Below, piece by piece: positions 29,497 to 30,497 of a stretch of 64,000 bases of DNA; within the stretch, counting starts at the first letter, position 1; each line of letters starts with the position of its first letter. The position numbers and the translations under genes were made by a program. The stretch is from Escherichia coli (GTDB lineage: Bacteria; Pseudomonadota; Gammaproteobacteria; Enterobacterales; Enterobacteriaceae): assembly GCF_003334815.1 (NCBI RefSeq), contig NZ_QOWO01000001.1. One strand, written 5' to 3'. The notes beneath the pieces were generated by a model. The model ran no database searches and had not been told where the DNA came from. It saw only the letters and a program-made list of their open reading frames with translations.

Positions 29497-29913
29497 TTAA
29501 TCAATAAACAAGGCGGGAGAAATGCCGAATCGCGTTGCCAATTTTTTAGCGTGTTCCAGCGTTAATTTCCTCTTCCCGCTCAAAACGCGTGACACCATAG
29601 ATTTACTGCCAATTTCCGGCAGATCGGAAAGGGTTAAACCATATTGATCCATAAGGGTACGAATCACGGCTATACCGCCAGGCATGGCTTGAGCCATGGC
29701 ATTAAATTCCGCAAATTCGGGCGCTGATTCTTCCCACGCGGTTATTTTGGCACACACCAGATCCAGCAAGGGGTTTTCAGGATCGTTGAGCAGCAGATGA
29801 TCTACCAGTTCCAGCGCCTGGGTGTATTGTTCCTCGTTCTGAATACCCGCCAGAAAAGGTGCCACAGCAGTTAGCTTTTCTCCTGCTTGCAAGATGTCGG
29901 CAATCGCAATCAT
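29497..29913 (-). CDS. higA: HigA-family antitoxin (HTH-XRE)
   Basis: 138-aa ORF directly downstream of, and overlapping by 4 nt, the toxin gene; C-terminal HTH. Confidence 0.85.
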   Translation of the reverse strand: MIAIADILQAGEKLTAVAPFLAGIQNEEQYTQALELVDHLLLNDPENPLLDLVCAKITAWEESAPEFAEFNAMAQAMPGGIAVIRTLMDQYGLTLSDLPEIGSKSMVSRVLSGKRKLTLEHAKKLATRFGISPALFID

Positions 29914-30224
29914 TTTTTCCCCTTAGTACGATGAACAGCGGTAAAGAAATCGTATTCTTTATGCGTCATAACTTCACGTATGTAGCACTTTTGCGATTCA
30001 AAAAAGACCATTGCTACAACACGTAATTCATTGCCCCCAACATTGAAAACATAATGCTTATCCAGATATTTGAAGTTATCCAGAGATGGGAATACTGCTT
30101 TTAATGACTCAGGTTTTTTGAAATATCCCTTAGCAATCGTGTTCCCCAGAGCCACCAACTCCGTTTTATGTTGCGGGTATTTTTCCGCAGCATCTTTCAA
30201 TGCTTTTTGAGTTATCAGGTGCAT
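29910..30224 (-). CDS. higB: HigB-family mRNA interferase toxin (RelE/ParE superfamily)
   Basis: 104-aa ORF MHLITQKALKDAAEKYPQHKTELVALGNTIAKGYFKKPESLKAVFPSLDNFKYLDKHYVFNVGGNELRVVAMVFF...; toxin-first order typical of HigBA. Confidence 0.85.
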   Translation of the reverse strand: MHLITQKALKDAAEKYPQHKTELVALGNTIAKGYFKKPESLKAVFPSLDNFKYLDKHYVFNVGGNELRVVAMVFFESQKCYIREVMTHKEYDFFTAVHRTKGKK

Positions 30225-30235
30225 TCTTCATCACG

Positions 30236-30288
30236 TCCGTTGACAAATTGGCAATATGATAACATCCGTTGCCAGATTGGCAACGGAT
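30236..30288 (-). promoter_or_regulatory. higBA promoter/operator with two related palindromes
   Basis: Perfect palindrome ATCCGTTGCCA-gat-TGGCAACGGAT at 30264-30288 and an imperfect copy CGTTGACAaatTGGCAAT at 30236-30257, immediately upstream of the higB start. Confidence 0.5.
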
Positions 30289-30404
30289 GAATTTATCTGT
30301 GTGACGGAAGAATAAACGTAGAAAAACGCTAAACAAGAGAATGTAGACGATGGTGACAGGGATTTTTTGTTTTATGGAAGCGCGATTCCAGAACTGGGCA
30401 GACA

Positions 30405-30497
30405 TTGCCGGATGCGACGCTTGCCGCGTCTTATCCGGCCTGGAGTAACGTGCTGAACGTAGGCCGGATAAGGCGTTTACGCCGCATCCGGCAGGTA
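30405..30497. repeat. BIME (inverted REP pair) between higB upstream region and rlmG 3' end
   Basis: gccggatgcgacgcttgccgcgtcttatccggcc ... aggccggataaggcgtttacgccgcatccggca. Confidence 0.7.

Follow-up and report, generated by a model that had tools for sequence, protein, structure and literature searches.

The closest described system is HigBA of Escherichia coli K-12 (YgjN/YgjM), which was studied by Christensen-Dalsgaard et al. in 2010 (PMC2814082). HigB (YgjN) was found to block growth through translation-dependent cleavage of mRNA, and HigA (YgjM) was found to neutralise the toxin. A promoter-lacZ fusion was repressed by HigA alone, and the induction of higBA by chloramphenicol or serine hydroxamate was dependent on Lon. 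According to the paper, the operon has one promoter, which lies ahead of higB and whose start site was mapped; -35, -10 and Shine-Dalgarno (SD) elements are marked as putative, and inverted repeats are drawn as putative protein-binding sites. For operator binding, reviews citing Jadhav et al. 2020 give affinities in the nanomolar range that are similar for HigA and HigBA, and the HigB toxin reportedly has no effect on operator binding. In one review that summarises the same work, the E. coli higBA operator is given as a single site bound by one antitoxin dimer.

The locus analysed here was compared with this system. In the window (the whole stretch of DNA under analysis, 64 kb in length), fadH at 27434-29452 on the plus strand is followed by rlmG at 30508-31674 on the minus strand, and two minus-strand ORFs lie in the gap between these host genes. 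The toxin gene is the first of the pair: higB (ygjN, 29910-30224) encodes a 104-aa ribosome-dependent mRNA interferase toxin of RelE-like fold, and higA (ygjM, 29497-29913), on the same strand, encodes a 138-aa protein that is both antitoxin and repressor and has an XRE-type helix-turn-helix (HTH) at its C-terminus. The two genes are coupled through an ATGA at 29910-29913, which is an overlap of 4 nt. The SD sequence of higA, AAGGGG, is good and lies inside the end of higB, and that of higB is poor; such an arrangement would be compatible with surplus synthesis of the antitoxin. At the neighbouring rlmG, the longest ORF has 388 aa as against 378 aa (1137 nt) in RefSeq, and the program-made ORF start therefore lies upstream of the accepted start codon.

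HigB is 100% identical over its full length to the mRNA interferase HigB of PDB entries 5IFG_A, 6KML_A and 5YCL_B, the last being the Shigella flexneri protein, and it belongs to the Pfam family HigB_toxin (PF09907, E = 4.4e-22). HigA shows the same full-length identity of 100% to the antitoxin HigA in 5IFG_B, 6IRP, 6JQ4, 6KML and 6KMQ, and its residues 84-135 match HTH_3 in Pfam (E = 2.5e-7). In NCBIfam no HigB model matched the toxin; the sole match there, a weak one to DltA (14.9 bits), was dismissed as noise. No RNA family was found inside the cassette coordinates in an Rfam scan. The cassette DNA is 100% identical to that of K-12-lineage genomes, for which RefSeq gives the gene order fadH, higA, higB, rlmG. 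When K-12 HigBA (YgjN/YgjM; PDB 5IFG, 6KML, 6KMQ, 6IRP, 6JQ4) is set beside the locus, the proteins are identical and the fadH-rlmG site is common to both; gene order, promoter and inverted repeats are as in PMC2814082, and with zero differences it is the same system. The toxin-first coupled bicistron, the HigB_toxin/RelE-like toxin and the XRE-type HTH antitoxin are all those of the K-12 HigBA type of type II toxin-antitoxin systems, and the locus is almost certainly the chromosomal higBA (ygjNM) operon of E. coli K-12.

An initial annotation of this DNA had described a toxin-first pair with a 4-nt overlap, consisting of a 104-aa RelE-fold toxin and a 138-aa HTH antitoxin. Both descriptions are borne out by the ORFs, the ATGA, the PDB identities and Pfam. 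It had further proposed toxicity and rescue assays and an EMSA of the antitoxin on its operator. The toxicity and rescue assays have already been published for exactly this locus (PMC2814082), and binding of the operator at nanomolar affinity was published in 2020, as relayed in the reviews. The finding is already known; its interpretation was essentially right and has the support of published experiments. Database searches and the literature are the source here for the identity of the proteins, the toxicity and its rescue, autorepression, the dependence on Lon and nanomolar binding of the operator.

The region upstream of higB was examined for promoter and operator elements. A candidate higBA promoter on the minus strand (30256-30283) matches the sigma-70 consensus at 10 of 12 positions; it consists of a -35 hexamer TTGCCA (30283-30278), a 16-nt spacer and a TG-extended -10 hexamer TATCAT (30261-30256). 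These hexamers and the contacted bases were assigned by consensus scanning only. The candidate promoter is overlaid by a perfect palindrome, CATCCGTTGCCA-gat-TGGCAACGGATG, here termed O1 (30263-30289), whose arms, CATCCGTTGCCA at 30263-30274 and TGGCAACGGATG at 30278-30289, are separated by a 3-nt spacer. O1 spans the -35 hexamer and the entire promoter spacer, and the -35 hexamer sits in its upstream arm on the minus strand. HigA bound to O1 as a dimer would therefore keep RNA polymerase off. The 64-kb window contains six perfect inverted repeats that have arms of 11 bp or more and loops of up to 10 nt, as against 0.27 expected from Markov simulations, and the five others are terminator-like.

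Downstream of the -10 hexamer and ahead of the higB start codon lies a degenerate second copy of O1, termed O2 (30234-30260). It matches O1 at 18 of 27 positions and conserves the core TCCGTTGACAAATTGGCAA. Seen as a direct repeat, the two sites share 25 nt at 84% with an offset of 29 bp, O2 being the one nearer to the start codon. The 19-mer pattern common to both, TCCGTTGNCANNTTGGCAA, is found nowhere else in the 64-kb window (0.06 occurrences expected). O2 extends from just downstream of the -10 hexamer to about 10 nt before the higB ATG, and a HigA dimer placed on it would cover the start site and the 5' UTR. From this layout we infer that O1 and O2 are the exact contacted sites, and any role of O2 is likewise read from it. 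The perfect operator palindrome upstream of the toxin gene and its degenerate second copy had both been put forward in the initial annotation. The second copy is real and the palindrome is indeed perfect; its arms are 12 bp long and not 11 bp.

The two sites were followed across lineages in an alignment of the promoter region. At window position 30272 on the plus strand an A replaces the C in O157:H7, O145, strain Z135-2 and Escherichia sp. E1V33. With this A, O1 becomes imperfect (TTGACA...TGGCAA) and its inner half-site is the same as that of O2. The exact K-12 41-mer around O1 was present in 1511 of 2830 carrier genomes, and 1313 genomes differed from it at one or two positions. The perfect O1 is thus a lineage-specific variant carried by about half of the carriers, and the occurrence of the A variant in a second Escherichia species indicates that the perfect palindrome is probably derived. 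In E. coli MEW (locus L029, 1480-1660) exactly one 29-bp O1/O2 period is deleted, so that the operators are fused and the -10 hexamer is gone; higB of this strain also has an internal deletion.

These data bear on whether O2 has any function. O1 could be the sole functional operator, with O2 a decaying relic of a 29-bp tandem duplication that has no regulatory role. In support of such a view, the promoter-proximal arm of O2 on the plus strand is without its outer part, which leaves an identity to O1 of 18/27, and strain MEW has dispensed with exactly one 29-bp period through recombination between O1 and O2. The centres of the two sites are 29 bp apart, a non-integral number of helical turns, which argues against simple cooperative binding on the same face and again favours O1 alone. 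The wording of one operator and one dimer in the review that summarises Jadhav et al. 2020 points the same way and implies that O2 may be non-functional. Against this, those sampled alleles in which O2 is still present have a conserved core, save for one base in Escherichia sp. E1V33, and the conservation thus extends to this second Escherichia species. In most lineages, moreover, O1 has the TTGACA variant of O2, so that the sites are more alike than in K-12, and the position of O2 over the transcription start and 5' UTR is a classic spot for a repressor roadblock. We regard O1 as the only working site as a serious possibility, though on the whole a doubtful one, and in the reading preferred here O2 is probably occupied as well, as expected in the initial annotation with its two-site autorepression.

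The palindrome could also act mainly as an RNA hairpin, in which case a terminator or insulator would keep rlmG transcription from running into higBA and protein binding would not be its main role. For the minus-strand transcript, folding gives a stem of 12 bp closed by a loop of 3 nt (MFE -25.3 kcal/mol, z = -3.85 vs shuffles), the stem is followed by a partly U-rich tail, and the palindrome was flagged as terminator-like on the plus strand by a scan. Yet the U tract after the stem is weak, the stem contains a mismatch in half of the carrier genomes in which the site is nonetheless kept, and a BIME is already present between rlmG and the palindrome. The stem also overlaps the -35 hexamer and spacer of a promoter that is known to be repressed by HigA. 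Since the palindrome lies on a mapped HigA-repressed promoter, a role in termination would be at most a side effect despite the stable RNA hairpin, and a hairpin as the main function is considered very unlikely.

With HigA binding as the preferred function of the palindrome, the operon works as follows. higB and higA are co-transcribed on the minus strand from the single sigma-70 promoter. HigB acts as a RelE-like translation-dependent mRNA interferase and is bound and neutralised by HigA. HigA represses the promoter; for this its dimers, through their C-terminal HTH, would occupy the 27-bp palindrome O1 over the -35 hexamer and spacer, and the weaker O2, past the -10 hexamer and before the start codon, is probably occupied by HigA dimers too. 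Upon translation arrest or amino-acid starvation, Lon degrades HigA and the promoter is derepressed.

The repeats on either side of the cassette were analysed next to these elements. To the right, BIME-R (30406-30493) consists of two inverted REP units, each an imperfect palindrome, in the same orientation as the repeat on the left, BIME-L. The units, about 35 nt long with the core GCCGGATG, are imperfectly palindromic, paired in inverse orientation, extragenic and multicopy, which identifies them as BIME/REP elements. Nine copies of the REP core occur in the 64-kb window as against 0.15 expected, and for a query containing REP the median number of matching places in an E. coli genome was 25. 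To the left stands a 21-nt hairpin, GCCGGATGC-AAC-GCATCCGGC (29468-29488). Its counterpart at the same position in E. whittamii and Escherichia sp. MOD1-EC7003 is a complete BIME oriented like BIME-R, and the hairpin aligns with the outer arms of this BIME; in E. coli MEW the left BIME is partly deleted. Judged by this alignment, the K-12 left hairpin is a collapsed BIME of which the outermost arms of two inverted REPs remain. As the hairpin is a BIME remnant, the cassette (~29490-30405) has a direct copy of one and the same BIME on either side. The earlier description of a cassette bracketed by a hairpin and a BIME is accurate as to the presence of both, and needs correction in that the hairpin is not an independent element; it is the collapsed BIME copy.

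Enterobacterial BIME/REP repeats resemble these in the REP consensus, the inverted pairing, the location between convergent genes and the many genomic copies. The difference from the typical case is that here two copies of one BIME flank an accessory cassette, and that one of them has collapsed to 21 nt in K-12. Elsewhere in the window, upstream of fadH, three REP/BIME units with a 100-bp period are found at 27036-27251, two of which match Rfam naRNA4 (RF02564, a nucleoid-associated ncRNA) above the gathering score. The window also contains a single tRNA gene with a CAT anticodon (11367-11442), which ARAGORN calls tRNA-Met; tRNA-Ile2 of E. coli can have this anticodon as well.

The origin of the cassette was addressed by comparison of the fadH-rlmG site in other genomes. 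Species-representative genomes were scanned with a degenerate pattern of the fadH 3' end, which gave 21 loci, with E. albertii and E. fergusonii not captured among them. In several species of Citrobacter, in Kluyvera and in Salmonella enterica subsp. arizonae, the fadH-rlmG gap consists of 49-458 bp of REP/BIME sequence without higBA. E. whittamii and Escherichia sp. E1V33 have higBA at this site. With the outgroup genera lacking the cassette and the Escherichia relatives having it, higBA is an ancient insertion that was acquired inside the genus Escherichia, at a place where two convergent genes enclose a spacer filled with REPs. In empty alleles of E. coli a single BIME is the sole intergenic element; its left and right flanks match the outer flanks of K-12, and the junctions lie inside REP. 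From the alignment to the empty allele the inserted segment is 29490-30405, comprising higA, higB, the promoter with the operators and about 115 bp of upstream spacer. The initial annotation had suspected an insertion module between repeats and had proposed a comparison with strains lacking the cassette for defining its boundaries. The outgroups without the cassette and the empty E. coli alleles with REP junctions uphold the suspicion, and the comparison places the boundaries at about 29490 and 30405, between the two BIME copies. Taken by its sequence, the empty-allele junction fits recombination between two BIMEs and an uninterrupted ancestral site equally; the two direct BIME copies are likely substrates for loss of the cassette, giving rise to empty-site alleles.

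The fadH-rlmG spacer is a repeat hotspot in other genera. In Citrobacter youngae (locus L009, 3643-4104) it is made up of tandem near-identical BIMEs over 458 bp, and in Franconibacter helveticus (locus L025, 4242-5170) of about 925 bp of a different tandem repeat. One contig recovered in the scan (locus L015) is labelled Chryseobacterium sp. 18061 and carries an enterobacterial fadH 3' end with a FadH 84% identical to that of E. coli; it is probably a contamination or a mislabelled assembly.

The cassette might alternatively be, or have been, an autonomous mobile element of MITE or IS type inserted in REP, with GCCGGATGC[A/G]ACGC as the target-site duplication. Set against the empty allele, each junction does have a copy of a 14-nt direct repeat (29468-29481 and 30407-30420); a weak inverted repeat of 26 nt at 77% lies near the cassette ends (29542-29567 and 30311-30336), and HigB-family homologues are common on plasmids (1056 records). 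The direct repeat, however, is the start of the two BIME copies, as the left BIME shows in those genomes in which it is uncollapsed (E. whittamii, MOD1-EC7003 and MEW). The left arm of the 26-nt repeat lies inside the higA coding sequence, and this only TIR-like pair is therefore probably due to chance. The cassette has no transposase or recombinase gene, and in the search of 5,426 genomes the higA segment and the higB/promoter segment were found at a median of one place and a maximum of two per carrier genome, with one plasmid place per search. The plasmid homologues, mostly from Klebsiella, are below 60% identity in all but eleven cases, i.e., two at 99% or more and nine at 60-80%; the listed member of the former pair is an E. 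coli record of 4.9 Mb in the plasmid collection. A transposon or MITE origin of this nearly single-copy segment, which has neither a transposase ORF nor a true target duplication nor a convincing terminal inverted repeat, is highly improbable and was rejected. Only six distant HigB homologues were found in phages, and there is thus no sign of a prophage origin.

With acquisition within Escherichia between the BIME copies as the favoured history, the present distribution of the cassette was determined in 5,426 complete E. coli genomes. higA DNA was present in 4377 of these, and the 5' part of higB with promoter and operators in 2848; at least 80% of the whole region was found in 2845 genomes. 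The full cassette accordingly occurs in ~52% of the genomes, higA without the higB 5' part and promoter in ~28%, and the empty site in ~19%. The orphan state of higA has already been noted for CFT073 and NRG857c (PMC7232551). Every sampled orphan case carries the same 325-bp deletion (29987-30311), which takes out codons 1-79 of higB together with the promoter and both operators; higA stays intact, and 25 codons of higB are left as a stub. The right arm of the 26-nt inverted repeat mentioned above begins exactly at the right edge of this deletion.

In all sampled orphan alleles higA is an intact ORF, and two orphan alleles differ by eight synonymous and no non-synonymous substitutions. This pattern hints at a maintained function of the orphan gene, or it could result from recombination with full alleles. 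No sigma-70-like promoter for the orphan higA was detected in the deletion allele by consensus scan, a result that is compatible with a promoter of a weak or non-canonical type. The orphan protein may be, e.g., an anti-addiction factor directed at incoming toxins of the HigB family, or it may be a stand-alone regulator with an uncharacterised promoter. That the orphan higA is under purifying selection as a working gene, and that the O1 change of the K-12 lineage retunes repression, is offered tentatively as an unlikely though conceivable extension. Rarer forms of decay occur besides the 325-bp deletion, that of strain MEW among them. In Escherichia sp. MOD1-EC7003 (locus L017, 8047-8907) the place of higB is taken by a gene for a 286-aa DUF1266 protein with a hydrophobic N-terminus, directly upstream of a higA that is 96% identical; the DUF1266 gene was also found in the place of higB in two of the 5,426 E. 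coli genomes.

The locus is a textbook example of a toxin-antitoxin system on the chromosome, its structures have been solved, and the current understanding of it is unchanged by this analysis. What has been added are the 12-bp arms of the palindrome, the lineage-specific nature of the perfect O1, the derivation of the left hairpin from a BIME, the polarity of the insertion relative to other genera and the allele frequencies. The case has the value of a footnote on chromosomal toxin-antitoxin modules, on their acquisition at intergenic sites rich in REPs and on a later decay that begins with the toxin.

Comparison with other described systems shows how far the likeness extends. HigBA of Rts1/Proteus vulgaris, the founding hig system, is likewise toxin-first and has a ribosome-dependent toxin of the RelE superfamily and an HTH antitoxin. 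Two operator sites overlap its promoter, and its toxin hardly affects DNA binding. K-12 HigA nevertheless reaches only 18.7 bits against the NCBIfam model TIGR02607 (antidote_HigA), below the cut-off of 47.7, and only residues 78-136, i.e., the HTH, align. The HTH is C-terminal in K-12 HigA and N-terminal in Rts1-type HigA (PMC6987408), and a further point of difference is that K-12 HigB belongs to Pfam PF09907. The K-12 and Rts1 HigBA systems thus have a common name and architecture and are not a close family. MqsRA (YgiUT) of E. coli, described in the same 2010 paper, is also a toxin-first type II system of the same strain with a RelE-like toxin, and its folded antitoxin represses its own promoter through palindromes, as HigA does. 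MqsR differs from HigB in cleaving mRNA independently of translation, and the DNA-binding arrangement of MqsA is different. MqsR destabilises the repressor-DNA complex, whereas HigB reportedly leaves operator binding unaffected.
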